A stretch of DNA of 30,402 nt from an uncultured Actinomycetota bacterium (lineage in GTDB: Bacteria; Actinomycetota; Actinomycetes; JAFAQI01). Made by a program: the position numbers and the translations under genes. The notes beneath the pieces are model-generated. The model did not search any database. It was given only the letters and a program-made list of their open reading frames with translations, and was not told the origin of the DNA. Of this stretch, positions 5,721 through 30,110 are shown piece after piece. The stretch's first letter is position 1, and every line of letters starts with the position of its first letter. The DNA is taken from positions 1-30,402 of the forward strand of contig CAVYQE010000004.1 of NCBI GenBank assembly GCA_963770565.1, read 5' to 3'.

Positions 5721-5776
5721 CCAGGACCGCCGCGTTCCGGGGCCGCTCGCGATCGACCGGGCTCAGCTCTCGTGGG

Positions 5777-6816
5777 TCAGGGCGTGCTGCCTACGACATA
5801 CTTCGTCAGCGAACTTGAGGCGTAGCCGGACATCGCCTGCGATGACTGTGACAGGCGGTAGTCACAGGTCGCTGACTTCTGGGAGTTCCATTCAATCGCG
5901 CCCTTGATCAGCGGCAGCTGTTGTAGTGCTGCTGGCACGGCGGCGTACCACGCTTTACGTTCGGTCCGGCGAGTGACGCGAACTCCGTGAGCATCACGGG
6001 CTTTGACATCATCCCGGGCTGACTCTCGACCCAGTTGTAGTACGGCTGAAACACTTGCAGCGGAGTCTTCCAGATGCCCTTGTGACACGACGAGAAGTTG
6101 TAGGCGTCGTAGCCGATCCAGTCGACGTAGCTCGCTCCCGGATAGCTCGCCGCGATATCTGGCAGATGCGGAAGATAGCCGGTTGAGACCCACACCCAGA
6201 TCACGTTGGTAACGCCCTGATTCGCGAACACCTGATGGATATGGCGATAGGCAGCGATGTACTGAGCCGGGGTGCCCTCGCCGGCTTCCTGAGCCTTGTT
6301 GTCGAACTCGTGTTGGAAGTCGACAAACACCTTCTGGTGGAACGCGATCAGCGTTTTGGCCTCCGGAATGATGACGGATTTGTCCCAGGACCCGTTGGCG
6401 ATCGACTGGTAGGTCACCTTCGAGCGGTTGGTGTAGTTCACCGCGTTCCAGCTGAAGTAGAGCGTCCGCGCTCCGCCGTCGGCGAGCGTTTTCGCCTTGG
6501 GGCTTGGAAATATCTCTCCGACTTTCCAGCCGATGTAGTTCTTGACGATGTCGAAGCGACGGCCGATGGTCTGTTCGACTGGACCGTAGCTCTGCGAGGG
6601 CACGAACATTCCCCAGAGCAGTCCACATGACGGTACGTCGATGCTGGATCGCGCACAGGTGTTGTGCACGACCGCGCGCGAACTCTGCTTACCGGGTTGG
6701 GAATGGGCTGCATAGCTTGCGGTTGCTGGAGCACTCGCCGCGGCTACTGCGCCAAGCGCCAACCCGATGAGCAGAATCGACGCGCGCGGGTGCATAGAAC
6801 GGATAACACGATTCAC
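5777..6816 (-). CDS. Secreted GH26-like glycoside hydrolase (one frameshift at ~5955)
   Basis: Signal peptide (ILLIGLALGAVAAASAPATA). GH26-type motifs FVDFQHEFD (acid/base), NVIWVW, YPGASYVDWIGYDAY, KPVMLTEF (nucleophile). C-terminus continues in the frame ending at 5777. GGGGAG RBS precedes GTG 6816. Confidence 0.8.
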
Positions 6817-6954
6817 TGAAAACGCTCCCCTGACAGGTTGAGGATCCGGCCTGTATGGCGAGCGCGGGGGACTCATACCTACCCGACGCCACCGTGGTGT
6901 CTCTGAACCAACCTAACCGGCGCCTGGCGGGTGGTTCTAGCGGGACACGCGGGT

Positions 6955-6983: not shown

Positions 6984-7026
6984 CGACCGCGCAGAAACCG
7001 CCGAATATCCACAAGGAGCCCTGGTC

Positions 7027-7707: not shown

Positions 7708-7725
7708 CGCCGCCCGTAGGCTCTG

Positions 7726-8300: not shown

Positions 8301-8308
8301 CCCGGCGA

Positions 8309-8314
8309 TATTCT
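8309..8314 (+). promoter_or_regulatory. -10 element for a probable leaderless ybjQ transcript
   Basis: TATTCT 6 nt before ATG 8321, with no Shine-Dalgarno sequence. Confidence 0.55.
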
Positions 8315-8320
8315 GCGGCC

Positions 8321-8647: not shown

Positions 8648-8668
8648 TCGCCGCTGCGGCGCGAACGG

Positions 8669-9634
8669 TCAGACTCCTTTGCCCCGCCGGTGCAGGGTGC
8701 TGAGTACGGTTTCGGCGGGGATGCCGCCGGCAACGGCGATGGCCAGGTAGGCGCGGGGTTCCCGCCAGCGCCGCCGGATCGCGCGACCGGCCCAGCGCAG
8801 GGCGGTCGTACGCTCGCCTGACGCTGCGTAGGCGAACGCGATCTGGCCGTAAACCCGCGCCGCGCCCTTGGGTGATTCCTCGACGATGTCGGGGTGCCGG
8901 TCGAGTATCCACTGCAGGGAGGCGATCTTCTGATCCCAGGCCCGGTTGAAGTGAGACCCTGACGTCCACTGAACCTGCACAAGTGGTTGATCCACATGCA
9001 CGATCGGGCTCAAGCGAGAAGCACGGAGAAGCACGTCCCAGTCCTCATTGTGGCTGCCAGGTATGCCCTCGTCGATCAGACCGAGGTCCCCGAGCAGGGC
9101 CTCGCGGCGGATGAGGAAGGTAGACGAGTGCAGCATCGACATCCGACTCGACCGGAGCTCTGCGTGCGTGATCCGGTTTGCTCCGGCAAGCCGCACGCTC
9201 CGCTTGCCCTCGAAGTCGACTTCGATGGAGCAGCTGACGAAGTTTGCCGACGGCTGGGCGAGCAGTGCATCGACCTGGTTCGCGATCTTGTTCGGACGCC
9301 AGGCATCATCGTCGTCGCAGAACGCGATGAGATCCGCCGTCGACGCCATGATCCCGGTGTTCCGGGCACCGGCGAGTCCGGCTTTGCGTGTATTGGTGAG
9401 AACCTTGATCCGCGGCGACGCCGGGAGTCGCTCGAGGGCGTTGGCATCGGCCTGGTCAAGGACCACGATCACCTGAAGGTCGCCGGCGTAGTCCTGCTCG
9501 AGCGCGCCGAGAACTGCGCGTCGAAGAAGCTCCGGGCGATTCCGAGTGGGGATGACCGCGCAAACCGAGGGCAGGCTCTCGGGTGGACTCGACGCTTCGA
9601 TCGGCACAGCGTAGTGGAGGGTCACGTCCGTCAT
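8669..9634 (-). CDS. Glycosyltransferase family 2
   Basis: VIPTRNRPELL, GLAGARNTG, IAFCDDDDAW (DxD), EDWD. ATG 9634 overlaps the upstream sulfotransferase stop (ATGA). Confidence 0.92.
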   Translation of the reverse strand: MTDVTLHYAVPIEASSPPESLPSVCAVIPTRNRPELLRRAVLGALEQDYAGDLQVIVVLDQADANALERLPASPRIKVLTNTRKAGLAGARNTGIMASTADLIAFCDDDDAWRPNKIANQVDALLAQPSANFVSCSIEVDFEGKRSVRLAGANRITHAELRSSRMSMLHSSTFLIRREALLGDLGLIDEGIPGSHNEDWDVLLRASRLSPIVHVDQPLVQVQWTSGSHFNRAWDQKIASLQWILDRHPDIVEESPKGAARVYGQIAFAYAASGERTTALRWAGRAIRRRWREPRAYLAIAVAGGIPAETVLSTLHRRGKGV

Positions 9635-10581
9635 CTCGGTCGGGCGCGGTCGGTCAGCACCGGGTAGGAGTAGCGGTGCGCGAGTGGCCAGGTCATTGCG
9701 CCCACCGTCCGGCGATCTGCGGTCGGCAGTCGGTCCTGCCACTCGATGTCAGGGCTGATGACGATCTCGCCGGTGTCGAACCGCATCGGGTTTCCGGAGA
9801 GCGTGTGGGTTCGTCGAAGGTTCACGGCGTGGTCCTGGATGGACAGTGTGCCGCTGTCCGGGAGACCCACGAACGCCAAGATCGAACTCACGGTCTGCTG
9901 CGGGTCCTCGACGAAATCCTCGTAGCGGACCCGGTGAACGGGCACGCCACGGGTCCTCAGGGTTTCGATGGCGGTGTTCTCGGCCATCCACATCACGGCG
10001 GTACGCGGCGGTGAGTACCTGCTCATGTATGCATCGCTGTCAGTCGAGGTCACGTCCGGCCGCTCGACGAATTTGCTCCACGAGTACGCCACCGCGCGAG
10101 GATCCCGTACGACGTGGACCACTCGGAGTTCGATCTCGGCCGAGTGCCGGAGGCAGTGGGCGAGTGAGGCGTGCTTGCTGGAGTCGACCAACCAGTGCGC
10201 CCCGCTAACTGCTTGGACTGCTCGGTAGAGGTGAACGTAGTAGAACAGGTATTCATCCAATCCGCGGCTCGACCGTGCCAGTAGCGCGGGTACCCGTCTG
10301 AGCCGGTCGACCTGATGCCGGAGCGTCTCTACCCGCTCGGTGTCGACCTGTGGCCAACCGCCGAAGGCGTCCTTGCCGACCTGCTGCCAGAATTCGCATT
10401 TGCTGAACGGGTCGCCACACCCGCACTTATCATCGTTGTGGAGGCTGCGGACCCAGCCGTGCACCGTCTCGCCGAGCGCTTGCATGCCGTCAATCTGACT
10501 GAGGAGTCGCTCGAGAAGCGTTGTGCCACTGCGCCCGAGCCCGCCCAAGTAGAGCACCTGGATTTCGGATTTTTCGGGCAC
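9631..10581 (-). CDS. Sulfotransferase with a Cys-containing insert
   Basis: VLYLGGLGRSGTTLL (PSB loop), CGCGDPFSKCEFW, VDSSK, HVVRDPRAVAYSW, RYEDFVEDP, GNPMRF. GTG 10581 chosen because of a leaderless -10 upstream. Confidence 0.92.
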   Translation of the reverse strand: MPEKSEIQVLYLGGLGRSGTTLLERLLSQIDGMQALGETVHGWVRSLHNDDKCGCGDPFSKCEFWQQVGKDAFGGWPQVDTERVETLRHQVDRLRRVPALLARSSRGLDEYLFYYVHLYRAVQAVSGAHWLVDSSKHASLAHCLRHSAEIELRVVHVVRDPRAVAYSWSKFVERPDVTSTDSDAYMSRYSPPRTAVMWMAENTAIETLRTRGVPVHRVRYEDFVEDPQQTVSSILAFVGLPDSGTLSIQDHAVNLRRTHTLSGNPMRFDTGEIVISPDIEWQDRLPTADRRTVGAMTWPLAHRYSYPVLTDRARPR

Positions 10582-10705
10582 GAGGACGATGGTAGGCGGG
10601 GGCTTGTCGAGGCCCCGGGCTTTGGGACCACATTCACTCGCCTGGCCTATCAAGTTGGTCCATTTGGCCTGACAAAACCACCCTGAAATCGCGTAAAATT
10701 GCGGC
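10582..10705. promoter_or_regulatory. Divergent promoter region with two leaderless-type -10 elements
   Basis: Minus strand: TACCAT (10594-10589) 7 nt before GTG 10581. Plus strand: TAAAAT (10694-10699) 6 nt before ATG 10706. Neither gene has an SD. Confidence 0.6.
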
Positions 10706-11671
10706 ATGCCCGCACTGACCCCGACCGTTTCGGATGGTCCGGATCGGGTCCGGGTCGCCGGGGTAAAGGTCGATGCGCTGACCGAGAATCAAGTCGTCGA
10801 ACAGGTTATTGCCTCCCTTCTGGTGGGACGTGGCGGGTGGATCGCCACCCCGAACGTCAACTTCCTCCGCCGGGCATCGAGCGACCTCGAGCTGGCGAGC
10901 CTGCTATCAGAAGCGACGTTGCGGGTCGCCGATGGCATGCCGCTGTCATGGGCCAGCCGGCTCGCGCGCGCTCCTCAGCTGCACCGCGTTACCGGCGCCT
11001 CGCTGGTGTACTCCTTGAGCTCGGCAGCCGCACGGTACGAGCGGTCGGTCTACATCCTTGGCGGGCCGCCGGGCGCCGCGGTCGAGGCCGCCGCCAACCT
11101 GCAAGCACATGCGCCGGGCCTGAGGATCGTCGGATCGGAAGCGCCTTGGCTGTCGGCAGACGTCACGGCTGAGGAGGTCGAGCCGATCGTCCAGCGGCTT
11201 GAAGCGGCCAAGCCGGACATCGTCTTCTGCGGATTCGGCTTCCCGAAGCAGGAGCGGCTCATCGCCGCGTGCCGTTCCCGGCTGCCGTCCACCTGGTTCC
11301 TCGGCTGCGGGGCGGCGGTGAACTTCGCCGCCGGGCACGAGCGCCGTGCGCCGCGATGGATGCAGCGCTCCGGTCTGGAATGGCTGCACCGGATGTCAAC
11401 CGAGCCGCGTCGCCTGGCCGGACGTTATCTCGCCGACATTCCCTTCGCCGTTCGGCTGCTCCTCGTCAGTGGGGTGCGAAGCCGGTACGGCTGGACCTTG
11501 CCGGCGAGTGTCGCGCCCTTCCCTGACGAGATCGTGATCCCCTCGCAGCAGGGTGGCGGGTCTCACGGCATTCCGATTCAGCCGGTCCGCCAGCGTGCGA
11601 CCCGTGCACGTTCTCTCGCGAGAACGGTCGCTACCGACGCGGTGCAGGGCGCATCGATGGATGAGACCTGA
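10706..11671 (+). CDS. WecB/TagA/CpsF family glycosyltransferase (GT26)
   Basis: IATPNVNF, VADGMPL, RVTGA, YILGG, DIVFCGFGFPKQE, LGCGAAVNF.AG..RRAPRWMQRSGLEWLHR...EPRRLAGRY. Confidence 0.95.
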   Translation: MPALTPTVSDGPDRVRVAGVKVDALTENQVVEQVIASLLVGRGGWIATPNVNFLRRASSDLELASLLSEATLRVADGMPLSWASRLARAPQLHRVTGASLVYSLSSAAARYERSVYILGGPPGAAVEAAANLQAHAPGLRIVGSEAPWLSADVTAEEVEPIVQRLEAAKPDIVFCGFGFPKQERLIAACRSRLPSTWFLGCGAAVNFAAGHERRAPRWMQRSGLEWLHRMSTEPRRLAGRYLADIPFAVRLLLVSGVRSRYGWTLPASVAPFPDEIVIPSQQGGGSHGIPIQPVRQRATRARSLARTVATDAVQGASMDET

Positions 11672-13179
11672 GCGATCGCGTTCAGCCCGAGCGGGCTCAT
11701 CTCTATGCGGTTGCGCGCGGCGGTGCCGCGAACCTGATCGGTGTCGTCGTCACCTCAGGCCTGAATCTCGCCCTTGTCGTCGTGGTGACCCGCGGCCTAG
11801 ATCGACGGGCGGCAGGTGCGGTATTCGCGCTGACGTCGCTGTACTTCCTGGTCGAGACGATGGTTCGGCTCGGGACCGATGTCGGTGTGGTGCATTTCGT
11901 CGCCGGCGACCGGGTCCACGACCGGCGGGCCGTGATCGACTCGATCTGGGCGTCGTTCATACCGATTGCGCCGACGATGGTCGTCGGCGCAATTGCGATC
12001 GGCGTGCTGACGCCATCGGTGGTCGACGCGCTCGGAGCGCGGCAGTCGCTGGCTCACCTGACCGCCGTTGCGCTTGCACTGGGCATCGCCGTTCTGGTCG
12101 GTGCGACCTACGATTTCATGACCGCGGTCACTCGAGGCCTCGGCCGATCGTCGCCAACGGTCGTGATCGAGCGTGTGCTCCGCCCGGTGCTTCAAACGGT
12201 CGGAGTGGTCGCGGCGATCGCTTCCGGAGGCGGCGCCTCCCTGGTGGTGGCGGCGTGGATCCTGCCGTACCTCGTGACCGGCCCGATCATGGCGGCATGG
12301 CTGCGAGCCCTGCTGGTTGCCGATGAAATACCACTGCGATCGACGGCTTGGCGTCTCCGCTTCCGGGAGATCTGGCGCTTCACGCTTCCGCGGTCGGCGA
12401 CCGGAATACTCCAAATTCTGCTTCAGCGGTTGGACATCATCATCGTCGGCGCAATTCTCGGCAGCGCGTCGGCGGCCGTGTATACCGGCGCCACGAGGTT
12501 CGTTGTGGTGGGGCAGCTCGGCAACCAGGCCATTTCCTACGTGTTCCAGCCTCAACTCGCGGGCCTGCTGCGTCGTCAGCGACTGGACGAGGCCCGAGAG
12601 CTCTATCGAGTGTCGACCGCGTGGATTGTCGGCCTGAACGCGCCGCTGTACCTGACGGTGTGCGTCACCGCGCCGCTGTTGGTTCGCCTCCTCGGGCACA
12701 ACTATCACAGCGGGCTGGGGGCGATGGAGGTCGTCACGGCGGCCAGCCTCGTCGGCTCATCGTGCGGGTTGGTCGACTTCGTCCTCATCACGGCCGGCCG
12801 CACATCCTGGAACCTGTGGAACACCACCCTCGCGCTTGGCATCAACCTTGCCGTGGATCTCACACTGATCGCGAGGTTCGGCATCATCGCCGCGGCGTGG
12901 GGTTGGGCTGCCGCGATTCTTATCAACAACCTGCTACCGCTGGTGCAGGTGCACCGAACACTCGGCTTCAGCCCGATATCGGGCACCTGGTGGCGAATGG
13001 TGATCTTGTCAGGGTTGGCGTTCGGCTTGATACCAGGGCTTGCACTCGCTATTGCGGGTGCCACGCTGCCGGCGATGCTGACTGCGCTGGCGGTGGCGCT
13101 GGTGTGCTATCTGGCGGTGATCTGGCGCTGGCGCGAACACCTGGCGCTGTCTCAGTTGTTGTCGGTGGGTCGGAAGTAG
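11668..13179 (+). CDS. Wzx-type polysaccharide flippase (MOP family)
   Basis: Many hydrophobic segments, N-terminal ARGGAANLIG, RLGTDVGVVHF, LQRLDIIIVG..AAVYTGATRF. The frame is open from CTG 11668; the ORF finder start is 11782. Confidence 0.88.
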   Translation: MSDRVQPERAHLYAVARGGAANLIGVVVTSGLNLALVVVVTRGLDRRAAGAVFALTSLYFLVETMVRLGTDVGVVHFVAGDRVHDRRAVIDSIWASFIPIAPTMVVGAIAIGVLTPSVVDALGARQSLAHLTAVALALGIAVLVGATYDFMTAVTRGLGRSSPTVVIERVLRPVLQTVGVVAAIASGGGASLVVAAWILPYLVTGPIMAAWLRALLVADEIPLRSTAWRLRFREIWRFTLPRSATGILQILLQRLDIIIVGAILGSASAAVYTGATRFVVVGQLGNQAISYVFQPQLAGLLRRQRLDEARELYRVSTAWIVGLNAPLYLTVCVTAPLLVRLLGHNYHSGLGAMEVVTAASLVGSSCGLVDFVLITAGRTSWNLWNTTLALGINLAVDLTLIARFGIIAAAWGWAAAILINNLLPLVQVHRTLGFSPISGTWWRMVILSGLAFGLIPGLALAIAGATLPAMLTALAVALVCYLAVIWRWREHLALSQLLSVGRK

Positions 13180-14171
13180 GGATCAGTCGCGAGGGCGCGG
13201 AATGCCGCGACGACGACCGGGTCGGTACCGAGCGCGTAGGCGTTGTTGATCCGGGCACCAGCGGGGTCGTAGTCGAAGTATGCGACTGCTTTGATCTGGC
13301 GACCCGCGGTCAAGGTGGTCTGAGCCTGCTCCAGCCATCGCGCACGCTCATCTGGTGGGTAGCTGCGCGGCACTCCGAACTCGCCGATCATCACCGGCTT
13401 TTGCTGCTGCTGCGCCCAATTGAGAAAGGGCCGGATCAGTCGGCCCAGTGGCTGGTAAGGCTGAGGACCGAAGACTGGACTTGGGTAGGCGTCCGTGCAC
13501 ACCCAGTCGACTTCGTTGGCCCCTGGGTAATAGGCCAGTGCGCGCCCGTCCGCGAACCCCGCCGCGGTGGGGCACCAGATCCAGGTCACGTTCGATACGC
13601 CAACGGAAGCGAAGACCTGTCTGACCCGGTCCCAGGCAGCGATGTAGTCCTGCGGTGAATGCACGACCCTGGCGAGATTGGGGCGGTCCATTTCCCACCG
13701 GAACTCGAGAAAGACCGGAGCGCGCAGTGAGGCGATCTCCTCGGCTTCGGCCTTGATCGTGCCGTCAACCGCCCCGCTCGCCATGGTTCGGGTGTCCGTC
13801 CCCGTCCAGGAGACGAGGAGATCTTCGCCGCGCTCGGCGAACTGGGTGGCCGAACTGGTGGGAAAAGGTGTCTCCCAGGGGAAGTAGACGTGTGCAAAGG
13901 CCAGCGGTCTGCATGCCTGCGCCGCGAGAGCATTGAAGGACTTCACGTAACCGTCCTGGGTCGCCGGACCGGCCAGCGCGAAGGCGCCGAGGTAGGCACC
14001 GTTGGTAGGAACGGCTGGAGGGCGTGCGGGCGCCCACGATACCCGGGGCTTCGGAGTCACGGTGCACGATGCGGTGCTGCGACCGGCGGAGTGGCCACTG
14101 CAGCCGACCAACGGGCCGAGAAGGCCACCGACGATCAGGAACCGGGCGACGGGTCGCCGCGCCCGCCGCAC
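13152..14171 (-). CDS. GH26-like glycoside hydrolase, probable lipoprotein
   Basis: Arg-rich N-terminus, hydrophobic stretch and lipobox LVGC. FLEFRWEMD, WIWCP, YYPGANEVDWVCTDAY, KPVMIGEFG. Start is GTG 14171 (overlapping the upstream TAG) or ATG 14204. Confidence 0.82.
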   Translation of the reverse strand: MRRARRPVARFLIVGGLLGPLVGCSGHSAGRSTASCTVTPKPRVSWAPARPPAVPTNGAYLGAFALAGPATQDGYVKSFNALAAQACRPLAFAHVYFPWETPFPTSSATQFAERGEDLLVSWTGTDTRTMASGAVDGTIKAEAEEIASLRAPVFLEFRWEMDRPNLARVVHSPQDYIAAWDRVRQVFASVGVSNVTWIWCPTAAGFADGRALAYYPGANEVDWVCTDAYPSPVFGPQPYQPLGRLIRPFLNWAQQQQKPVMIGEFGVPRSYPPDERARWLEQAQTTLTAGRQIKAVAYFDYDPAGARINNAYALGTDPVVVAAFRALATDPYFRPTDNN

Positions 14172-15050
14172 TACTCTCGCCAGCTCGGCTGCCACCCGAG
14201 CCATTCGCCGAGTTCGGCATCGTAGGGCGCGAAGTGAGCTTCAAGGCGGGCCCGAACATGGTCCGCCATCGGCGAGCGTGGCCTGGCGTTGTGTCGCTCG
14301 AAGTCGATGTCGGCGGACGGAGGGAGGCCGAGGAACTCGAGCGTCGCCGCGAAGGTCGGCTCGGGATCGGAGAAGAACCGATGGCTGTCGACGACGTGAA
14401 TTCGCGAACGACCGAGGATCTTCTCCAGCCGGCGCAGTGCGTCGATGTACTGCCCGCGTGCCACATACGCCTGGTGCTGGTGGGCCTGGCTCTCATACGT
14501 CGGGTCGGCGCGCAGCGCCTCTTCTTCGCCTGCGGTGCGCAAGGGCTCGAGCTCGAGCGCCCGTTCGAAAGGCTCGGTCTCGTACCCGCGCGCGAGTTCG
14601 TGCGCATGGGCCGAGTTACGCCCGCTCGACCGGGTCGCGAATCAGCATGATGACGCGAACATCGGCCAGATCCGCACTGAATCGATCGGCCGCAAGCGGA
14701 TGGAAGCCGTAGTACGGACTCGACTCGTAGACGATGGGATCGACTCCGAGCCGGCGCGCAGCGGCTGACACGGCGACCCGCGACGGGAAGTGCGCGCGAT
14801 ACCAGCCCAACCCCTGCGCGTAGTTCATATCGAAGTAGTGCACTCCTTTGTGCATCACGGGTTTGAAAGCACCGGGATGCTGCGTCAGGGCCCGGTACAT
14901 CGACGTGGTTCCGCACCGCTGTCCGCCAACGATCAACACGTTCGGCAGGGCCCGAAATCGACTGGTTGCGCGGCCGTAACCATGCACGACAACGGTTTGC
15001 GCATAGCGTTTCAACGGTACGGGCAACGCCGACTGTCGGTTCGGGCTCAC
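14171..15050 (-). CDS. Sulfotransferase resembling the heparan-sulfate 3-O/N-sulfotransferase domain (one frameshift at ~14617)
   Basis: LPNVLIVGGQRCGTTS, KGVHYFD.NY..GLGWY..HFP, ESSPYY, IRDPVERA. Removing one A in GCGTAACTCG gives RAYSAHAHE, which joins the frame with RGQY and FLGL. Confidence 0.9.
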
Positions 15051-16246
15051 TGGCGCACCCCCCGCTTTGCCCGAATCGTGTCCAATGCAGCGGGCAGAAG
15101 CCAGGTCCGCGTGGGGTGCAGCCTCGACCCCGCGCCGGCCTGATCGTCAACGTCGTAGCGCACCGCAAGTGCCAGCAAATGCAACGCCGCGACGGATGGA
15201 GATGCCGCCTCAGCCACGACGGCCCGCGCGGCGGCCAATGGCGCCATCCGGCGAATGATCAGAAGCTCCTGCAGCCGATAGTGAGTGAGGTCCGATCCGA
15301 CCGGCGCATCTGTGCGAAAGCGTTCCCAATCCCAGACCAGCAGGCCGGCCTCCGTCCGCCACATGTTCCACGGCGACCAGTCGCCGTGGCTTGCACCGAA
15401 GGTGACGTCGATGTTGCCTGCGCAGTCCGTGACGGCGTCGAGCGCGGCGCGAAGTGGATCGCGGCGATCGGCGTCGGCAACACCTTCTGCGCCTTCACGG
15501 AGCCCCATCCAGAAGCTCGACGCGGCGAGCGGAGTGGTCTCAACGGTCGCGGTTGCAACAAGCTCAGCGCTCGCCTGGGCAAGGTCGCTGGCGCTGGGCA
15601 GGCGACCGCGGGACCAGGTCGGAAGTGGGCTCAACACGAGAGATCCGCGGCCGGCGAAGTCCGAGTTGTCGATCACCGTGGGCGTGATGAGCAGCCGGGA
15701 GTCCGCGCCGGCGAGCTGCCTCAGCGCGCGCGCTTCATTCGCGATCAACCCCACGCTGAGGTCGGATTGCGCGACCTTGGCAAACCCGATCGGGTAGCGA
15801 CCTCGGACGGTCAGGGCTTGAACGATGGCCTTGCGGTTGGCCCGAGCAGGAGTCAGGTGGATCGCCGCCGTCACGGGCTGACCAAGGACCCGGGTGAGGT
15901 GGCCATCGATCCCCGACGAGTAGGTATCTCCGGGCGCGATCACGGCGATGTCGGGTCTGAGCAACGCAGACCCGGGCAGTCCGGCGGCCGCGACGAGGCA
16001 CCGATATCCGAGTCTCGCCCGAGCGTTGAGCCGGCCGCCGTAGGCGCGAAGCGCGGCCCTTGCGGTCGCGGGCGAGCCAGCGGGCACGAGCAGCCGAGGT
16101 CGAGACGGCGAAGGGATGATCGCGAACGATCTCTCCGAGTGCTGCCCTCCGCCGGCCGGTGACGACGCGATGTCGCAATCCGGATACAGGCCGGCCAGAA
16201 CAGAGCGGGCATAGGTCAGCCGGTCCCCCGAATCCGGCGATCTCAC
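15047..16246 (-). CDS. APH/choline-kinase-like phosphotransferase
   Basis: FAKVA (ATP-binding Lys), NEARAL, HGDWSPWN (catalytic loop), DWE (metal binding). GTGA overlaps with both neighbours. Confidence 0.7.
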   Translation of the reverse strand: MRSPDSGDRLTYARSVLAGLYPDCDIASSPAGGGQHSERSFAIIPSPSRPRLLVPAGSPATARAALRAYGGRLNARARLGYRCLVAAAGLPGSALLRPDIAVIAPGDTYSSGIDGHLTRVLGQPVTAAIHLTPARANRKAIVQALTVRGRYPIGFAKVAQSDLSVGLIANEARALRQLAGADSRLLITPTVIDNSDFAGRGSLVLSPLPTWSRGRLPSASDLAQASAELVATATVETTPLAASSFWMGLREGAEGVADADRRDPLRAALDAVTDCAGNIDVTFGASHGDWSPWNMWRTEAGLLVWDWERFRTDAPVGSDLTHYRLQELLIIRRMAPLAAARAVVAEAASPSVAALHLLALAVRYDVDDQAGAGSRLHPTRTWLLPAALDTIRAKRGVRQ

Positions 16247-17618
16247 CGAAGGCCGCCGGCAACCAAGGGGCTGAGCTCGCGCGGAGCGGGCTGAGGCTTC
16301 GGTCGCACAACGACCGCCGGCGGAACGGCGATGCTGCGCCAGGCCAAGGAAATGGAGATCAGGGTGATGCCGGCGGCGGAAGGCAGGTTGTTGTAGAAGT
16401 AGCTGTAGAACAACACCAGGATGATGATCAGACGCGCGGCCGTACCGGTCGGACTTCGATCTCTTCGCAGGGCCAAGAACGCAGCGAGGAAGAACCCGAA
16501 GTACAGACCAACTCCGACGAGGCCGTTGCTGAACGCCACCTGCCAGAACTCCCCGGTGCTACCGATGCCTACGTTGCCGCAGTTGAGGCAGTTGGCGGTG
16601 GGTCCGATGGCGATCGATTGGCCGCTCCCGATCGTCTTTCGGGGCCCGCCCCAGCCCAGGATCGGGGACTCCAGAGCACCGTGCCAGGCGGCGGCGTCCG
16701 CGAATGCCCGCACCTCATTGCTTCCGCCGTGGCTCTCGCGCTGGGTGATGACGCCATGCAACGGTGTCAACAGGAAGGCCAACACCGCGACCGGAAGAAG
16801 GAGCAGCGCGCTGATCAAGGCACGCGTGTCGCCTTGAGCGGCCAGCCGCCAGACCAGATACGCGACCGAGATGAGAAGCCCGAACCACATACCGCGGTTG
16901 AGGGAGTAGACGATCGGCACTAGTGCGACCGCGAGCGTGACACCGAGGGCAAGCCGACGCCAACCCGATGCCGGGCGCCACATGTACACGCAGAACCACA
17001 CCAACAGGATGGACAGCAGGTTGCCCCAGGTGTTGGTGTAGCCCCAGGGAGCCGCCGGCCGCGGCGCGGAGTAGCCAAGCACGGTCTGCACCTGTGCGGC
17101 GGCAGGATGGACGAGCGACTGTACGTAGGTGTTCGAGATGATCCCGTGCGGCAGGACTGCTTCAACCGGAGACGTGAAGGAGAACGACGGTGCTGCGAGC
17201 GCGAGATAGCCACCGGCCACGGTCGCGAAGAACAGGACGCACATCCAGCGCATGATCTTGCGCTGCGGAACCTGACTGGTCGGGAGGTTGAGCACATACA
17301 ACGCGATGATCGTCACGGCGCCGAGTTCGAAGAAGCGGAACATCACCCCAAAGGCCCGGCCCGACTGCGATCCAGGAACCGTGTGCGGGGCCCCGAAGGG
17401 GAGCATCACCAGGCTCAGCACGGTCCAGATCAAGAAGAGCATCCACAGGCCGAAACCGGGGGGAGGAGGAGCGGTCGCCACCGGCGAAGCTGCCAGGCCA
17501 TCGGAATCGCGAACAATACGAAGGTGAACTCTCCGGCGCCGATGACCCACCACAGCGGGTAGAAGCAAAGCAGGGCCCACAGCGGCCAACCGGCCTGCAG
17601 GCGCAGTCGCGAAGCCAT
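16243..17618 (-). CDS. Wzy polymerase/O-antigen ligase family membrane protein (frameshift at ~17460)
   Basis: About 10 hydrophobic segments, RPAAPWGYTNTWG, SLNRGMW, SNEVR, SPILGWG. The N-terminus is in ORF 17430..17618 and joins at a G run near 17458-17463. Confidence 0.82.
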
Positions 17619-17638
17619 CGGTCGTTCGCTGCCGTTAC

Positions 17639-19393: not shown

Positions 19394-19623
19394 GGTGTCG
19401 AGCGCCTCACTCCGTCGTCCCCGCAGTTCGGATCAGAGTAACCGGCGCTTCGTCCGTTGGCGGCCAATTGTCGAGCTTAACGGGCAATTAGGGCTGTTCG
19501 GGCGTAGCCGTCTGCGCCGTATGGGTGATCCGACAGACAGCAAGCGGGTGAGCCTTAAGCCACCCGAATGTGCGGTCGAACTAGTCACTACAGGTAGTGC
19601 AGAGCCGAGCAGTGAGGGTAACG

Positions 19624-21887: not shown

Positions 21888-22172
21888 TCACGCCCGGACT
21901 TGATCGTCCAATCGGGTGATTCACCTCCGAGTTCTGGAAACCCACCTCGCGCTGTCTGGTCCGTTGTTATCGTCGGTCCACCGCTGACGCAGCCGCGTTG
22001 GTGGCGAGTCGCTGGCCCACGGCGAACGAGGTGACATCGCATGCGCATCCGCCTAACCGGACGTTCGGGGACGGCTGCATCCGCGCATCGATCAACGCCC
22101 GGTCGCAATGGGGGGCTGATCGCGCGTCGGGTGCGGTCGAGGGCGGGTACCGTGGGTTGGAAAGGCAGCGAG

Positions 22173-25100
22173 ATGATCAGAAGTCGCGTCGCATCCTTGT
22201 GTGTGTTCGCGTTGGCGTTCGGCGGAATAGTAGGGCTCGCGGCTCCCGCCCAAGCAGTTCAGGCGGCACAGTCGACTGTCGTCAATGCCGTCCCCGCCAC
22301 CACTACGCCGGACGTCAACAACGGCGCCGTCATGGCGATCGCCCAGGTCGGCGGCCAGATGCTCGCTGGTGGCTCGTTCACTTCGGTGAGCCCGCACGCG
22401 ACTCCGGGCACGGTCTACAGCCTCAACTACGTCTTCGCGTTCAACGCCTCGACCGGTGCCATCGACCACACGGGCTTCCTTCCAGTCGTCAACGGTGAGG
22501 TCGACACGATCATCCCGGGGCCGGCCGCCAACGAGGCGTACATCGCCGGCCAGTTCACCACCGTCAACGGGGTGAAGGAGCGCGTCGCGCTCGTCAATAC
22601 CACCACCGGCGCGATCGTGCCCGGCTGGAAGCCGCCTGCGATGAACGCAATCATCGGCAAGCTGGTGCTGGCCAACGGCCTGCTCTTTGTCGGTGGTGAC
22701 TTCACGGCTCCGACGTCCGGTCTCGTAGCGCTGAACCCGACGACCGGCGCGCTCACCAACTACGTCAATCTTTCCATCACCGGACACCACAACTACGGGA
22801 CTCAGTGCGATCCCAACTCAACGTCATGCGCGATCGCCGGCGTCGGGGTCAAGTCGATGGATATCAACCCAGCCGGCACCCAGATGATCATCATCGGGAA
22901 CTTCACCGGTGTCGGGCCCGCCGGCGGCACCTCGCTGCCGCGCGACCAGGTCGCGATGATCGACCTCGGCTCCACTTCGGCCTCCGTCGACCCGAACTGG
23001 GCGACCGACGCTTACACGGCCGCGTGCTTCAGCTGGGCGTTCGACTCCTATATCCGCGATGTCCAGTACTCGCCGGACGGCTCGTACTTCGTGGTCGTCG
23101 CAACCGGCGGTAGTGGCACGAACAGCGACGGGACGAACTCGTCCTGTGACACCGCAGCTCGCTTCGAAACCACTGGCCAGGGCGCGGACGTGCGTCCGAC
23201 CTGGATCGACTACACCGGGCAGGACTCGCTGTGGAGCGTGGCCATCACGGGAACCGCGATCTACGTCGGTGGCCACCAGCGTTGGCTGAACAACTCGAAG
23301 GGTTTCGACTACGCCGGTGCGGGCGCGGTGCCTCGTCCGGGTCTCGCAGCGATGAACCCGGAGAACGGTCTGCCCATCGCCTGGAACCCAGGCCGGAACC
23401 CTCGCGGCGGCGGTGCCCACTCGGTGCTGGCGACCCCGACCGGCCTCTGGGTCGGAAGTGACACCGACTACATCGGGAACCGGCAGTACCTTCACAAGAA
23501 GATCGCCTTCTTCCCGCTCGCCGGTGGCGCGACGCTGCCGTCAGACGCGACGCCGACCCTGCCGGGCCGGGTCTACACGGCCGGTGCCTACCCGACGCCA
23601 GGTAGCACGAATGTGCTGTACCGCGTCGACACCGGTGGCCCGACGATTCCAGCGATCGACGGTGGCCCCGACTGGCAGGGGGACACTTCCGACCCGTCGC
23701 CGTACCGCAACTCAGGCAGCAACACCTCGAGCTGGTCGCCGATCACCAACGTCGACAGCACGGTGCCGGCCTCCACGCCGTCTGCGATCTTCAACACCGA
23801 GCGCTGGGATCCGGGCAACGATGTCGGCGACAACGGCAACCTGCGATGGACGTTCCCGGTGCCCGCTGGCGACGTGGTCGACGTACGGCTGTACTTCGCC
23901 AATCGCTATGGCGGTACGAGCCAAGTCGGCCAGCGGGTCTTCAACGTCAGCATTGACGGCCAGTCGTTCCTTAACAACTTCGACATCGTTGCGACTGCCG
24001 GCGACCAGACCGGGACCATGAAGGACAAGACGCTGACGAGCGACGGCGAGGTCACGATCGAGTTCTCCCACGTCGTGGAGAACCCGCTGATCGACGGCAT
24101 CGAGATCGTCAAGCAGTCCGGCCCGACCAACTTCACCAACCCGGTTCCGATCTACCGGGTCCACGCGGGTGGCGGCGAGATCGACGCGACCGACGGCCAG
24201 CCTGCGAACTGGCTCGAGGACGACTCCGACACCGTCGGCACCGGCGGCCCGCTGCGTTCCGGTGGCAACGTGGCCAACTGGGGCCAGCCATGGGGCGGCA
24301 CGGTCGGCTCGACGGTTCCGTCGTACGTGCCCGCGGACATCTTCTCGACCGAACGCTGGGCGCCGCAGACCTACAGCTTCCCGGTGGCGTCGGGCACACC
24401 TGTGACCGTCAACCTGTTCATGGCCAACAACTGCGGTTGTACGGCCAGCCCAGGTCAGCGGATCTTCAACGTGGCGATCGACGGCAATCCCGTGCTGTCC
24501 AACTACGACATCGTGAACGACGTCGGAAACCTGGTCGGCGAGATGAAGTCGTTCAACGTCACGGCGCCGGCCAGTGGCATGGTCACGGTGGCGTACACCA
24601 ACGGCCCGGCCGACAACGCCGTCGTCAACGGCCTCGAGGTGGATCAGGACGGGGCGACCCCGATCCTGCCGAGCACCAACGTTGACCGGTTCAGCTACCG
24701 GCACTTCGACGGCACCACTGCGGGCTCCGAGCAGAACCTGTCGACCGGCATCTCGTGGGGCTCGATCCGCGGCGCGTTCACGGTCAACGGCGAGCTCGTC
24801 TACGGCAAGACGGACGGCAACCTCTACGAGCGCACGTTCAACGGTTCGACGTTCGGTTCCGAGGTCTTGCTCGACCCCTGGGCGGACCCATACTGGGAGA
24901 ACATCAGCACGGGCTCCGGTCAGAACTACCTCGGCGCAGAGTCGACCTTCGGGGCCGAGATCCCGTCCGTGACCTCGATGTTCTTCACCAGCGGGCGGAT
25001 CTACTACACGCTGGCCGGTAACCCGACGATGTTCTGGCGCTGGTTCGAGCCGGACGACGGCATCGTCGGATCGGACGAGTTCAGCGTGAACGACGGCAAC

Positions 25101-27101
25101 AACTGGTCCGATACAGCCGGCGCGTTCCTGTCGGGCAGCACGCTCTACTTCGCCGACCGTGGAACCGGCGAGCTGTACTCGATCGGCTGGAACGGCACGC
25201 AGGCGACCGGCTCCTCGAGCGTGGCGGACGCGTCGCAGGACTGGGCGAGTCGCGGGATCTTCATGCTCGCGGATGCGACCAACCCGAACAAGCCACCGGT
25301 TGCGGCTTTCACTCCGTCGTGCTCATCGACGAGCAACGCGTGCACCTTCGACGCGACCGCATCGATCGACCCGGATGGCAACATCACCGACTACGCCTGG
25401 GACTTCGGCGACGGTTCGTCGGAGCACCACACCGATGGCACGCCGTTCTCGCACACCTTCCCGAACCCGGGCAAGTACACGGTGACCCTGACCGTCACGG
25501 ACAACGACGGGGCGACGGACACCCAGACCGAGAACGTCACGGCTGGCGAGACGGCGCCGGTTCCGACCTTCGTCAGTGCAACGACGGCGTGCGGCCCGGG
25601 CACCGGGACGTGCGGCAGCAACTCGACCACGGTGGTCGGCGTGCCATCCGGTACGGCGAGGGGTGACGCGCTGCTGATGTTCGTCACCTGGCCGACCAGC
25701 TCGACGGTCAGCGCATCCGTACCGACCGGCTGGACTCTGCTCGCGAAGGACGCGAACAGCCCGCTCGAGTCGGACGTCTACTACCGGACCGCGACACCGA
25801 GCGACATCGGCTCGACGTGGACGGTGACGTTCAGCGGCAAGACGAAGAACTCCGTGACGCTGGCCGACTACACGGGTGCGGACTCGCACACCATCGAGGC
25901 CTTCGCCAAGGCGACCGACTCCAGCACGGCGTCTCACACGACGCCGACGACCTCCGTGGTCAATGACGGAAGCCTTGCGGTGTCCTTCTGGGCGGACAAG
26001 TCCTCGACCACGACGGCCTGGGCCCCGCCGGGTTCGGTCACAGCGGATGCGACGTCGTTCGACACGGGCAACGCCTATGTGACGTCGCTTCTCGCCCATT
26101 CCGGATCCACGGTCAACAGTGGTCCGTACGGCGGCCTCCTGGCCAAGTCGAGCCCGGGTACGAGCGGCAAGGGCGTGGAGTGGACGATCATCCTCGCGCC
26201 GCTGGGCACGACCAACGCGCCGCCGGTCGCGGCGTTCACGTCCAGCTGCGACACGACCCTCACCTGCTCGCTCGACGGCTCCGGCTCGTATGACCCGGAC
26301 GGAACCGTCAGCACGTGGGCGTGGGACTTCGGGGACGGGAACTCCAGGCCGCAAGTGGGTCGCCGACGACGTCGTACCAGTACGCCGTGCCGGGGACGTA
26401 CAACGTGACGCTGACGGTCACGGACAACAACAACGCGACGACCTCGGTGACGCATGCGGTAACGGTCTCCGGCCCGGTGCAGAACATCGGGTTCGGCGGC
26501 ACGAACGCCGCCGACGGCACCACGTCCGCTCCCACGGTGCTGGTGCCGGGCGCCGCCGCGGCGGGCGACACGTTGTTGATGTTCGTGTCCTACGCATCGA
26601 CGACCATCACGGCGACGACACCGACCGGCTGGATCAAGGCCGCGAGCCAGTCGGCGAGCAACCTCTCGACCATCGTGTACGAGAAGACGGCGACGGCGGG
26701 GGACCTCGGGTCGAGCCCATCGGTGACACTGTCCGGCTCGGTCAAGGCGAGTATCACAATCGCTGACTACTCGAACACGGCGGCCTCGCCGATCGAGACC
26801 AGCGCGTCAGCGACGTCGACCGGTTTCTCGCACGCCGCGCCCGCGGTGTCGGGGCTGGCGAGCGGAAGCTGGGTGGTGTCGTACTGGACCGACAAGTCCT
26901 CGACCACCACTGCGTGGACGCTGCCAGGTGCTGTGACCAAGCGGGGGCTGCCGGTCTACGGCTCCGGCAACGGGGCGATCAGCGCGGCGATCGGTGACTC
27001 GAATGGAGCAGTGAGCGGGGCACCCTGGTCAGACAGCAATGACGAACGTGTCGAGCGGCTCGGCGGTTCAGTGGACCGTCGCGCTCGCACCCTCGTCCTG
27101 A
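22173..27101 (+). CDS. Large secreted protein (~1640 aa): propeller-like N-terminal region, two malectin domains, two PKD domains and two copies of an unnamed domain (frameshifts at ~26345 and ~27020)
   Basis: Signal peptide ending AAPAQA. Repeated GG.FT motifs. Malectin motifs YRV..GG, IF.TERW, GQR.FNV.IDG, DIV...G occur twice. PKD motifs PPVAAFT..DPDG..AWDFGDG occur twice. Corrected end QWTVALAPSS*. Confidence 0.85.
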
Positions 27102-27149
27102 TCGGGACTGAGTAGCCGCCGGCAGGGGGACTGCATCTAGGGAGTGGTG

Positions 27150-30110
27150 ATGCGCGGGAGCCTCGTACCGCGTTCCCGCGCATTCACCGTTCACCTGCCG
27201 TTCATCGCCGGTCTCGCGGTGGTTGCGGCGGTGGGCTCCGCCGCCCTCTCGGCGCTACCCGCGGCGGCGGTGCAAGCGAGCCAGGCGACCCTGGTCAGCC
27301 CGGTGCCGGCACCACAGACGCCGGACGTCAACGACGGCAGAGTAAACGCAATTGCGCAGGTAGGCGACGAGATCATCCTCGGCGGGACCTTCACCTCGGT
27401 GAGTCCCGCCGGGGATCTCAGCACTACCTACCCGCTCGCAAACACCCTGGCGTTCGACGCGACGACCGGGGATCTGGACACGACCGGCTACCTCCCGAGC
27501 GTCAACGGCGAGGTCGACACGGCCATCGCCGGGCCGGCACCCGACGAGGTCTATCTCGGCGGGAAGTTCACGACCGTCGACGGCCGGCCGATGGCGGTCG
27601 CGCTGGTCAGCACGAGGACCGGGCAGCTGGTCCCGACCTGGCATCCGTCGGCCCTCAACGGTTCGGTCAGCCGGCTCGTGCTCGCCGGCGGCCACCTCTT
27701 CGTCGCCGGGACCTTCACCAAGGCCGGGGCTGATCGGCACGGCGGGCTGGTGGCGCTTGACCCGGCGACCGGACATGCAACGTCCTACGTGAACTTCTCG
27801 TTCACCGGGCACCACAACTACGGCTCTCAGTGCGATCCCGACACGAGCAAGTGTGCGACCGGGCGAGTCGGCGTCAAAGCGATCGACGTGAACCCAGCCG
27901 GCACCCACCTGGTGGTCATCGGCGACTTCACCGAGGTCGCCGGCTTCAGCCGCGACCAGATCGCGATGCTCAACCTCGGCACGCCCTCCGCAACCGTCGA
28001 TGCGAGCTGGGCGACCCTCGCTTATACGAGCCCCTGCCTCGCGCACTCGTTCGACAGCTACGTCCGCGACGTGCAGTTCTCACCGGACGGCGGGTACTTC
28101 GTCGTGACCGCGACTGGTGGGATCGGCACCAATCGTGACGGGACGAAGTCGTCGTGCGACGCGGCCGCGCGCTACGAGACGAACGCCAGCGGCGCGAACG
28201 TCCGGCCGACCTGGATCGACTACACCGGCGAGGACTCGCTCTGGACGGTCGCCCTGACCGGCACGGCGATCTACGTCGGTGGGCATGAGCGCTGGCTGAA
28301 CAACTCCCTCGGCCAGAACCAGGCGGGCCCTGGCGCGGTGCCTCGCCCCGGTATCGCGGCGTTGAGCCCGAGCAACGGGCTGCCGCTGAGCTGGAACCCA
28401 GGGCGTGAGCCGCGCGGTGCCGGGTGCTTCGCGCTGCTCGCCACACCTGCGGGACTCTGGATCGGCAGCGACACCGACTACATCGGTAATCGGACCTATC
28501 TTCGCGAACGCGTAGCCTTCTTCCCGCTCGCCGGCGGGGTGGCCGTGCCGGACGCGTCGACTGCGCCACTGCCCGGCCAGGTCTATCCGCCCGGAACTGC
28601 CTCGACGTACACCACAGATCCGGATCGGTTGATCTACCGGGAGTTCAACGGTGTCACCCTCGGGGCCGAGGAGCCGGTGTCGAGCGGCCTGCCATTGGGC
28701 TCCGTCGACGGCGCGTTCACCGTTGACGGCGAAGTGATCTACGGCAAGCCGGACGGGAGTCTGTACGAGCGCAGGTTCGACGGCAGTACCTTCGGTGACG
28801 AGGTCCAGGTCGATCCATACGACGATCCGCTCTGGGACGATGTGCAGACCGGGTCCGGTGAGGCCACCAAGGACAGCCATCCACGTTCGCGGCTGAGATC
28901 CCGTCTGTCACGTCCATGTTCTTCAGGGACGGTCGTCTCTTCTACACACTCGCCGGCAAGAGCGCCATGGATTGGCGCTGGTTCGAGCCCGAGTCGGGCA
29001 TCGTCGGCGCCGACGCATTCACCGTCTCAGGCACCAACAACTGGTCCGATGTTGCCGGTGCGTTCCTCGCCAGCGGAAAGTTGTACTACGCGAGCCGCGC
29101 GAATGGGGGGCTGGGCGGTTCCTTGGTCGGGCCTGAAGCCCGCAGGCGTCCCGACGTTGGTCGATGCGGCGACGGACTGGGCAAGCCGGGGGCTGCTCCT
29201 GCTGGCACAGTCGGATGCGCCGGTGGCGACGCCGACCGCGGAGTTCACCGCCACCTGCAATGGGATCGCGACGTGCTCGTTCGACGCGATGCCGTATCTG
29301 ACCCCGACGGCGGAGTGGTCCGCTACGGGTGGGACTTCGGCGACGGCACGCGCAAGCGCTTTCACCCTTCTCCTCGACCACCCATACCTACACCACCGAT
29401 GGCACTCACAAGGCGACGTTGACCGTCGAGGTCACGGCCGGGGCGAGCGCGACCACGAGCCAGACGATCGAGATCGCGCGGCCGATCGAGAAGGTCGCCT
29501 TCGTCGGCGCCTCGAAGGTCACGTCGACCGGCACCAAGGCGCGGATCAAGGTGCCCGTGACCATTAAGCCGGGCGAGGCCTTGCTGATGTTCGACTCGTT
29601 CGCATCGAACAAGAAAGTGATCCGCCCGAGCGGCTGGACGATGATCCGTGAGACGAAGCACACGCGCTCACCACGGTCGTCTACGAGCGGGTGGCCACCG
29701 CATCCGATGCCGGCCGCGTGGTGACCGTCCGCTACGCGCAGCGGGTCCACTCGAGCCTGGTCCTGGCCGGCTACCGCAACACTGCGGTGCATCCGATCGA
29801 GATGTCCGCAGTGTCGACCGGGTTGGCGTCGAGGCGCCATCGTCCACCGAGCTTCACCGACTCAAGAACGGCACCTCGGTGGTCGGCCTGTGGTCGACCG
29901 TCGGGTCGGACCAGCCTCATGGGTCACGCCGAAGGGCCTCAAGCGCCGCGTCGGCATCCACAGCGCCCGACGTCCGGCGGTCGGTCCTGCTCGCCGACAC
30001 CGGCAAGCCCTGCGCCGGGACCTGCGTGCTCGGGTCGGCGTGGTCGAAACGAAGGAGCAGGGCGGCGGCGCAGTGGCGATCGTGCGCCCACGCTGGGTGA
30101 CGCCGCCTGA
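27150..30110 (+). CDS. Secreted PKD-domain paralog of the upstream protein, lacking the malectin domains (several frameshifts after ~28860)
   Basis: Near-identical blocks TPDVN.G, TGHHNYG.QCDP, FDSY.RDVQ.SPDG, VRPTWIDYTG.DSLW, GSDTDYIGNR, DWASRG, and a PKD motif YGWDFGDG. The end is uncertain (30100 or 30110). Confidence 0.8.

Follow-up and report, generated by a model that had tools for sequence, protein, structure and literature searches.

We analysed a stretch of 30,402 bases (about 67% GC; hereafter the window), which is the entire contig C4 of an 11-contig, 4.43-Mb genome of an uncultured soil actinomycete. The core of the window, positions 8669-19393, probably encodes a Wzx/Wzy-dependent pathway for a sulfated glycan, of the type represented by the wps-1 cluster of Actinoplanes missouriensis (Tezuka & Ohnishi, Appl Environ Microbiol 2026, PMC13390465). 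The product would be an anionic glycan, surface-bound or secreted, built from short repeats that bear sulfate and probably phosphate as well. Since a genetically studied homologue exists and the family is common, the locus is a further member of a known family and not a new kind of system. An initial annotation of the window had proposed such a polymer and had named Wzx, Wzy, Wzz, GT2 and GT26 genes, two sulfotransferases, a kinase, two GH26-like enzymes and two giant secreted proteins. All of these genes are present where it placed them, and the sulfated Wzx/Wzy polymer stands as a prediction from genes and synteny, with the sulfate itself predicted from sequence.

Gene calls, made from frame plots of GC content at third codon positions (GC3) and Pfam scans of the open reading frames (ORFs) of the window, gave the following features for the core and for the secreted proteins encoded to its right (E values in brackets).

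8669..9742, minus strand: GT2 glycosyltransferase, WpsA-like (Pfam Glycos_transf_2, 5.6e-23)
9631..10707, minus strand: sulfotransferase ST1, WpsB-like (Sulfotransfer_3, 4.6e-17; Sulfotransfer_1, 5.1e-11)
10706..11671, plus strand: GT26 glycosyltransferase of the WecG/TagA/CpsF family, WpsC-like (Glyco_tran_WecG, 6e-53)
11782..13179, plus strand: Wzx-type flippase, WpsG-like (Polysacc_synt_3, 8.3e-11; 10 transmembrane-like segments)
13152..14204, minus strand: GH26b, predicted lipoprotein, WpsE-like (PDB 2bv9, 7.7e-12; lipobox LVGC)
14171..15050, minus strand: sulfotransferase ST2 of the heparan-sulfate 3-OST/NDST type, WpsH-like, lying in two frames (Sulfotransfer_1/3, ~5.5e-6, N-terminal part)
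15047..16246, minus strand: predicted kinase of the APH/choline-kinase/FN3K fold, 399 residues, WpsI-like (motifs, AlphaFold2 model, Foldseek)
16243..17651, minus strand (window ORF 16243-17589): Wzy-type polymerase, WpsJ-like (Wzy_C, 7.2e-6; 7 transmembrane-like segments)
17639..19393, minus strand: Wzz/PCP chain-length determinant, 584 residues, WpsK-like (Pfam Wzz, 2.4e-9)
19597..21887, plus strand: secreted protein with CBM96, a Pro/Thr-rich linker and a GH26-like domain, CBM96-GH26c (CBM96, 2.4e-9)
22041..27115, plus strand: giant 1, with signal peptide, seven-bladed beta-propeller, two malectin domains and PKD (Malectin, 9.8e-26; PKD_4, 2.1e-31)
27144..30110, plus strand: giant 2, with signal peptide, beta-propeller and PKD (990-residue ORF in the second copy of the locus; PKD_4, 2.8e-15)

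The comparison with wps-1 was made through locus L060 of the congeneric Actinoplanes couchii, which served as a proxy for the A. missouriensis sequences. The window proteins are 35-58% identical to their L060 counterparts (GT2, 56%; ST1, 47%; ST2, 51-54%; GH26b, 42%) and 35-62% identical to orthologues in syntenic loci. Several core genes are joined by short start/stop overlaps, namely GTGA at 16243-16246 (Wzy/kinase) and at 15047-15050 (kinase/ST2), TAGTG at 14169-14173 (the ST2/GH26b junction, with an overlap of at least one base) and ATGA at 9631-9634 (ST1/GT2), the last provided that translation of GT2 begins at its likely ATG (9634), where this start and the stop codon of ST1 overlap. We considered whether all such overlaps might be artefacts and rejected this for these four junctions. 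The initial annotation had taken overlaps as a sign of translational coupling, and this holds for the same four, while the apparent overlaps at 14616-14641, 20232-21027 and 26294-26408 proved to be frameshift artefacts.

ST1, ST2 and the kinase have no transmembrane-like segments, and both ST1 and the kinase are predicted to be cytoplasmic. Against the PDB, ST1 gave weak matches alone, to 4gox (CurM-type, E 7.7e-4) and to cytosolic SULT1A, whereas an intact orthologue of ST2 matched the bacterial sulfotransferase 3rnl (1.3e-17) and heparan-sulfate 3-OST-5 (3.4e-14). Matches of this orthologue to heparan-sulfate 3-O-sulfotransferases ranged from 3.4e-14 to 7.5e-9, and the sulfotransferase domain of NDST was also matched. 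The likeness to the animal 3-O-sulfotransferases and NDST (PDB 3bd9, 1t8t, 1nst) and to 3rnl extends over the core that binds 3'-phosphoadenosine 5'-phosphosulfate (PAPS), with E values of 1.3e-17 to 4.7e-8. Unlike the animal heparan-sulfate enzymes, ST2 is a soluble bacterial enzyme of ~280 residues.

The 399-residue protein encoded between ST2 and Wzy had no Pfam or NCBIfam match, and in a profile search of the PDB its best hit, a choline kinase (E 0.19), was non-significant. K139, K157, E171, H287-G-D289, N294 and D306 are invariant in 10 orthologues, and among them are what we take to be the catalytic lysine, the glutamate, the HxD...N loop and the metal-binding aspartate. An AlphaFold2 model (predicted local distance difference test score, pLDDT, 84.5; predicted template-modelling score, pTM, 0.86) matched 217 PDB entries at E<=0.001 in Foldseek, and all 36 of the matches listed were kinases of this bilobal APH/FN3K fold, with FN3K and APH at the head. 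The best was 3f7w (4.6e-7), accompanied by 2ppq, 1nd4, APH(4)-Ia and choline kinase, and the neighbours comprised fructosamine-3-kinase, homoserine kinase, aminoglycoside phosphotransferases, maltokinase and glucosamine kinase. On this model the protein is a small-molecule kinase of the APH/choline-kinase/FN3K fold.

NCBIfam models gave no useful match for ST1, ST2, the kinase, GH26a (a further GH26 protein, described below), GH26b, Wzy or giant 2. GT26 matched EPS_EpsA (2.3e-44) and Wzz matched polys_exp_MPA1 (1.9e-9), both under the cut-off of the model, and the orthology of Wzy was established via synteny. Wzz has transmembrane-like segments at 23 and 240, followed by a long cytoplasmic domain of 313 residues (17639-18580). 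No P-loop family was found in the 584 residues with Pfam or NCBIfam, nor any PDB sequence match for the C-terminal 313, which may be a degenerate domain of the kind found in bacterial tyrosine kinases (BY-kinase-like). PCPs that contain a BY-kinase (Wzc/CapAB type) are marked by a Walker A/B ATPase domain and a cluster of tyrosines at the C-terminus. Residues 69-322 of GH26b (254 residues) aligned with CtLic26A, a GH26 lichenase from Clostridium thermocellum (PDB 2bv9, E 7.7e-12), with E171 and E275 placed on chain residues E109 and E222, which we take to be the catalytic glutamate pair of the (beta/alpha)8 domain typical of this family. Both glutamates are therefore kept, and GH26b also resembles the GH26 beta-1,3-xylanases. 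It differs from CtLic26A in being encoded within a biosynthetic operon and in its predicted lipid anchor. GH26a and CBM96-GH26c carry signal peptides.

The gene set recurs well beyond the window. In nine loci of close relatives (C3, C5, G001, G002, G004, G012, G017, G028 and G037) ST1, ST2, GT2, Wzx, Wzy, the kinase and a GH26-like gene occurred together in every case, with Wzz in seven of the nine and GT26 in one; ST1 homologues were present in 15 of 41 relatives, including all four genomes of the same genus. The ST1 count, and those for the class given below, include the unpublished genomes G040, G060 and G067, and no statement depends on these alone. A scan of named genomes with a kinase profile gave at least 514 confirmed loci, of which the best 80 were kept, 62 of them with full 10-kb flanks. 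Around the kinase gene of these 62 we found Wzy in 60, ST2 in 59, Wzx in 58, Wzz in 55, GH26-like genes in 50, GT2 in 42, GT26 in 40 and ST1 in 36, counts that are not independent, as the 80 loci are the most similar of the at least 514 and are mutually related. The co-occurrence of sulfotransferase, wzx and wzy genes, whose absence the initial annotation had named among the results that would refute it, was thus seen in homologous loci, and the set is syntenic in all nine relatives' loci and recurs in most of the 62, beyond what chance would give.

Among the matches listed, the best kinase-profile hits came from metagenome-assembled genomes (MAGs) labelled Frankiaceae and from many long-read soil MAGs, with Acidimicrobiia (a few MAGs) and Chloroflexia (one MAG) also represented. 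Among the carriers in culture are Longispora, Dactylosporangium, Actinoplanes couchii, Glycomyces, Actinomadura, Kribbella and Nocardioides. Across an even sample of the class we found the kinase marker in 75 of 301 genomes; for good-quality genomes the count was 59 of 236, and for genera 41 of 150. The Actinoplanes-type cluster is therefore widespread in uncultured soil actinomycetes, with about a quarter of the sampled class genomes carrying the marker kinase. It is not tied to sporangia, and the prediction can be tested directly in cultured carriers such as Actinoplanes, Kribbella, Glycomyces, Actinomadura and Dactylosporangium. The initial annotation had considered genetically defined sulfated bacterial polysaccharides rare and had known of no characterised actinobacterial equivalent. 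The cluster proves to be common, and the second statement no longer holds, as wps-1 of A. missouriensis, published in 2026, has the same gene set (PMC13390465).

The sulfate donor and priming genes that the initial annotation had missed in the window lie elsewhere in the genome. Genes for adenosine 5'-phosphosulfate (APS) kinase, a CysQ-like phosphatase, CysN and CysD are located at 584-590 kb of contig C2, adjoining the sole Bac_transf (WbaP-type) gene, rmlA and rmlD, and two strong PF00953 (MraY/WecA-type) genes lie on contigs C1 and C11. The region around the former (L033, G000:C2:570000-589999) is a second glycan neighbourhood, with GT2 genes (one fused to a methyltransferase domain), RmlA-like and RmlD genes, a protein with collagen triple-helix repeats, an NlpC/P60 protein and the sole Bac_transf priming transferase; here the APS kinase domain ends a 742-residue ORF, which is followed by the CysQ-like phosphatase, CysN and CysD.

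From these genes we infer the order of steps and the substrates as follows. A phosphoglycosyl transferase encoded elsewhere, with the WecA-type (C1 or C11) and WbaP-type (C2) proteins as candidates, would start the unit on undecaprenyl phosphate, and GT26 and GT2 would add one sugar each. In the cytoplasm ST1 and the heparan-sulfate-type ST2 would move sulfate from PAPS onto the unit, the PAPS being supplied by CysDN and CysC and the resulting 3'-phosphoadenosine 5'-phosphate cleared by the CysQ-like phosphatase (all on C2), while the APH/FN3K-fold kinase would phosphorylate a sugar of the unit. Wzx would then flip the unit, Wzy polymerise it and Wzz set the chain length. Outside the membrane the GH26b lipoprotein, the secreted GH26a and CBM96-GH26c may trim or release chains, and the two secreted beta-propeller proteins, one with malectin, may bind or organise the polymer. 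A short, densely charged repeat resembling a glycosaminoglycan (GAG) would fit both the kinship of ST2 to heparan-sulfate 3-O-sulfotransferases and the presence of only two encoded glycosyltransferases.

The main alternative for the fate of the polymer, which we regard as somewhat unlikely, is that the same machinery makes a peptidoglycan-linked, teichuronic-acid-like cell-wall glycopolymer, with GT26 building a TagA-type linkage unit on GlcNAc-PP-undecaprenol. GT26 does match TagA/TarA/WecG models, the genome has a WecA-type PF00953 gene, the locus is set amid cell-envelope and housekeeping genes (glmU, pth, mfd) and the predicted lipobox would anchor GH26b in the membrane, all of which would suit a wall polymer. 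GT26 is found, however, in just one of the nine closest relatives' loci, Pfam scans of the window and of 31.5 kb of C2 flanks revealed no LytR-CpsA-Psr ligase, and the phenotype described for Actinoplanes concerns the sporangium matrix, growth being normal (PMC13390465).

We consider it improbable that the sulfotransferases and the kinase decorate some other target, such as a glycolipid or glycans on the secreted giants. Such a role might be read from the weak resemblance of ST1 to CurM-type and cytosolic small-molecule sulfotransferases, from a kinase fold family that acts mostly on small molecules and from the PMT protein O-mannosyltransferase encoded in the C2 flank, but the start/stop overlaps chain ST2 and the kinase translationally to Wzy, and the ST2/kinase neighbourhood is kept in 59-60 of the 62 loci, including loci without giants. 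Moreover, the closest solved relatives of ST2 act on polysaccharide chains, and wpsH and wpsI mutants resemble wzx and wzy mutants (PMC13390465).

Contig C4 duplicates G000:C2:366896-397238 at 96.4% identity; the differences, 735 mismatches and 299 gap openings, are distributed patchily. Contigs C3 (30,554 bases) and C5 (30,778 bases) carry the same locus from other taxa at ~70-83% nucleotide identity, which leaves the bin with multiple versions of a single genomic region (C2, C4, C3 and C5). According to GC3 frame plots and Pfam, C4 and C2 both switch frame within genes, at differing places, and the copies complement each other, giant 2 being intact in C2 and the N-terminal part of giant 1 in C4. 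Since the housekeeping genes glmU (fragments 3242-4704) and prs (4506-5907) are likewise broken in both copies, we read the frame changes as indel errors of the long-read assembly.

In ST2 the frame switches between 14614 and 14619 of the window, where orthologues have one continuous frame, and the 5' end of Wzy is misframed at ~17457, the N-termini of orthologues changing frame at 17457-17463. C4 and C2 have no differences in the 10-16 kb bins and hence share the ST2 break. We compared Logan contigs of soil-metagenome runs over 8601-28600, where at best 0.23 of the stretch was covered; six runs were listed, none recorded as RNA, and their contigs are shallow (depth 2-3) and may derive from the source sample. 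One contig (depth 3.1) lacks one base at 14616, which restores the ST2 frame, and contigs of runs X1, X2 and X3 (one sample) add a G after 17457, which restores that of Wzy. Because these corrections coincide with the predicted break sites, they argue that ST2 and Wzy are intact in nature and that their frameshifts are assembly errors; with the orthologue frames, they led us to reject the reading of the two as pseudogenes.

Relatives encode CBM96-GH26c in one gene. In the window its frame shifts at ~20400, in the linker, which is out of frame: the G002 orthologue (603 residues stop to stop) matches 19837-20349 in frame +1 and 20943-21869 in frame +3. The linker itself (20350-20940) consists of Pro/Thr-rich repeats with a GC skew of -0.27 and spans ~590 nt, against ~58 residues in the G002 orthologue. 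Joints in metagenome contigs omit 222 and 120 bases within 20623-20895, which suggests repeat-length variation in this linker. The metagenome contigs neither cover nor settle the linker frameshift or the break in giant 1 (26300-26400). Near the end of giant 1, a contig of run X1 adds a C and a T at 27018-27021, a further probable assembly indel.

That the locus is decaying, with real breaks in ST2, ST0 (a third sulfotransferase, described below), Wzy, CBM96-GH26c and the giants and no polymer made, is slightly more improbable still: frames switch in both C4 and C2 and the ST2 break is identical in the two, but housekeeping glmU and prs are broken in the same manner, breaks in one copy are matched by intact sequence in the other, for example in the giants, and metagenome contigs mend ST2 and Wzy exactly at the predicted sites. 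The frameshifts of this noisy duplicate contig should not be taken as biology.

Several points nevertheless weigh against reading the core as a wps-1-type pathway for a sulfated glycan. The PAPS and priming genes are ~190 kb off or on other contigs, their link to the locus being presumed only; the substrate of the kinase could be a precursor or a protein; and no LytR-CpsA-Psr ligase or export component was found that would indicate where the polymer goes. The Wzy_C match of the polymerase (26.3 bits against a cut-off of 31.7) and the Pfam match of GH26b (E 0.004) fall below threshold, and the loci behind the co-occurrence counts are, as mentioned, related to one another. The ST2 repair depends on a single contig of depth 3.1, and the breaks in ST0, the CBM96-GH26c linker and giant 1 stay without a metagenome correction. 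Finally, the authors of the Actinoplanes study themselves predict a sulfated exopolysaccharide whose sulfation awaits experimental verification (PMC13390465).

What the window adds to the Actinoplanes work is a secreted, DUF5122-like beta-propeller family that tracks the wps-1-type cluster. In both giants a signal peptide leads into a conserved domain of ~430 residues, and the nucleotide sequence of giant 2 is 70% identical to the propeller region of giant 1. The main ORF of giant 1 (22041-26408) has its likely true start at M45 (22173) and breaks frame at ~26300-26400; the tail ORF (26294-27115) continues the PKD part, and the C2 copy is open to the position equal to window 27115. Giant 2 is a single 990-residue ORF in C2 (L031:1202-4174, minus strand), frameshifted in the window copy after ~28800. 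The initial annotation had called both proteins lectin-like, which is borne out for giant 1 by its two malectin domains; giant 2 showed a propeller and PKD in Pfam, with no malectin or lectin domain found.

The ~430-residue domain was modelled as a seven-bladed WD40-type beta-propeller (pLDDT 67, pTM 0.73), and Foldseek and VIA-align placed it among WD40-like structures (Z ~28). These were generic WD40-type propellers with no lyase or hydrolase among them, a result that does not exclude an enzyme role. By sequence, Pfam gave faint DUF5122/Rax2 hints only, the N-terminal 533 residues of giant 1 had no match in the PDB, and a propeller profile matched a single WD40 protein there (6.3e-7). The protein atlas returned only uncharacterised actinobacterial clusters labelled 'hypothetical / DUF5122 / delta-60 repeat', and in the excerpts that a literature search for DUF5122 or 'delta-60 repeat' surfaced, only repeat-protein modelling was found.

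In 30 of the 62 full-flank loci a propeller gene lay no more than 10 kb from that of the kinase. Taking E<=1e-50 as our own threshold for a strong hit, the family was present in 70 of the 301 class genomes: 64 had both kinase and propeller, 11 the kinase only, 6 the propeller only and 220 neither, a table in which relatedness inflates any test. The two genes were at most 20 kb apart in at least 39 of the 64 genomes with both. The cluster is usually accompanied by this family. Members of the large-genome family f4 encode the propeller by itself, in an ORF of ~430 residues far from the cluster, and in the genome studied here a further paralogue (G000:C2:643181-644590) lies in a 1009-residue open frame, with ~250 kb between it and the locus copy on C2. 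These patterns provide a lead towards a functional partner of the polymer. It is possible, and we put it forward tentatively, that the propeller is a dedicated and so far unrecognised partner of wps-type clusters across Actinomycetes, acting as a receptor or organiser of a proteoglycan-like matrix or as a new processing enzyme, and that the polymer is a GAG-like two- or three-sugar repeat with sulfate and phosphate.

To the left of the core the window has three further features.

164..1042, minus strand: ST0, third sulfotransferase (Sulfotransfer_3, 7e-7; stop at 503-505)
5908..6876, minus strand: GH26a, third secreted GH26 paralogue, between prs and rplY (Glyco_hydro_26, 2.7e-9; signal peptide)
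6931-8647: rplY, pth and ybjQ, left of the range of the initial annotation

In both copies the middle of ST0 is garbled and its reading frame is interrupted by a stop at 503-505; over 164-1027 it is 47% identical to the intact L039 orthologue, and its orthologues sit within the cluster in G028 and L039. GH26a lies beside rplY also in C3, C5 and G001. Between ST0 and glmU, 1058-3200 is a high-GC3 coding stretch in which C4 and C2 differ by 132 mismatches per kb (at 1-2 kb) and no ORF tried had a Pfam match. In C2 the island lies between pth/ybjQ at one end and mfd, mazG and eno at the other, with ispE and metG beyond glmU. These borders agree with the range that the initial annotation had drawn, and they fit an accessory block inserted in a conserved housekeeping region.

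Matrices of animals, algae and cyanobacteria owe their form in part to sulfated polysaccharides; in Gram-positive bacteria these are, to our knowledge, still only predicted. We also know of no kinase, GH26 or propeller partner in synechan, the sulfated exopolysaccharide of a cyanobacterium, whose xss system is characterised by its sulfotransferases, an OPX/PCP-2a export pair and XssR/S/Q regulators. Our literature search found no chemical evidence of sulfated glycopolymers in actinobacteria, and for a Streptomyces exopolysaccharide the excerpts hold a compositional sulfate value only (PMC9911575). Synechan itself (xss, Synechocystis sp. PCC 6803; Maeda et al. 2021, PMC8205485) has been shown chemically to be sulfated and, as in the window, combines Wzx/Wzy-type assembly with dedicated sulfotransferases, a likeness of pathway logic only; its host is a diderm cyanobacterium. 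Sulfotransferase genes in polysaccharide clusters, and products with sulfate proven by nuclear magnetic resonance, are described for Vibrio sp. KMM 8419 (PMC11641403) and Cobetia marina KMM 1449 (PMC11766843); unlike the window, these concern capsules of Gram-negative marine Gammaproteobacteria.

The closest known system is wps-1 (wpsA-K, AMIS_7280-7380), which encodes WpsA (GT2), WpsB (sulfotransferase), WpsC (GT26), WpsD (DUF4262), WpsE (GH26), WpsF (methyltransferase), WpsG (Wzx), WpsH (heparan-sulfate-type sulfotransferase), WpsI (protein-kinase-like), WpsJ (Wzy) and WpsK (Wzz). In gene-by-gene knockouts all of these except wpsD were required for normal sporangium formation or spore release, with mild defects in wpsB and wpsE mutants and severe ones in wpsH and wpsI mutants, and the adjacent AMIS_7390 (sulfate adenylyltransferase/APS kinase) was likewise required (PMC13390465). 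Read in reverse, L060 of A. couchii has GT2, sulfotransferase, GT26, a gap without Pfam match, GH26, methyltransferase, Wzx, sulfotransferase, kinase, Wzy and Wzz, which is the published wpsA-K order with the gap where WpsD would be.

The window differs from wps-1 in that WpsD (DUF4262) and WpsF (methyltransferase) were not found in Pfam scans of the 8669-30402 ORFs, no PAPS synthase gene adjoins the locus and Wzx adjoins GT26; it has in addition ST0 as a third sulfotransferase, the GH26 paralogues GH26a and CBM96-GH26c, and the two giant propeller proteins. Because the host is an uncultured soil actinomycete, with Frankiaceae MAGs as its closest named relatives among the matches listed, a sporangial role cannot be assumed. 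Nine of the 11 wps-1 gene types (GT2, sulfotransferase, GT26, GH26, Wzx, heparan-sulfate-type sulfotransferase, kinase-like protein, Wzy and Wzz) are nonetheless common to both, and in wps-1, in L060 and in the window the kinase-like gene sits in the same position, between Wzy and a sulfotransferase.

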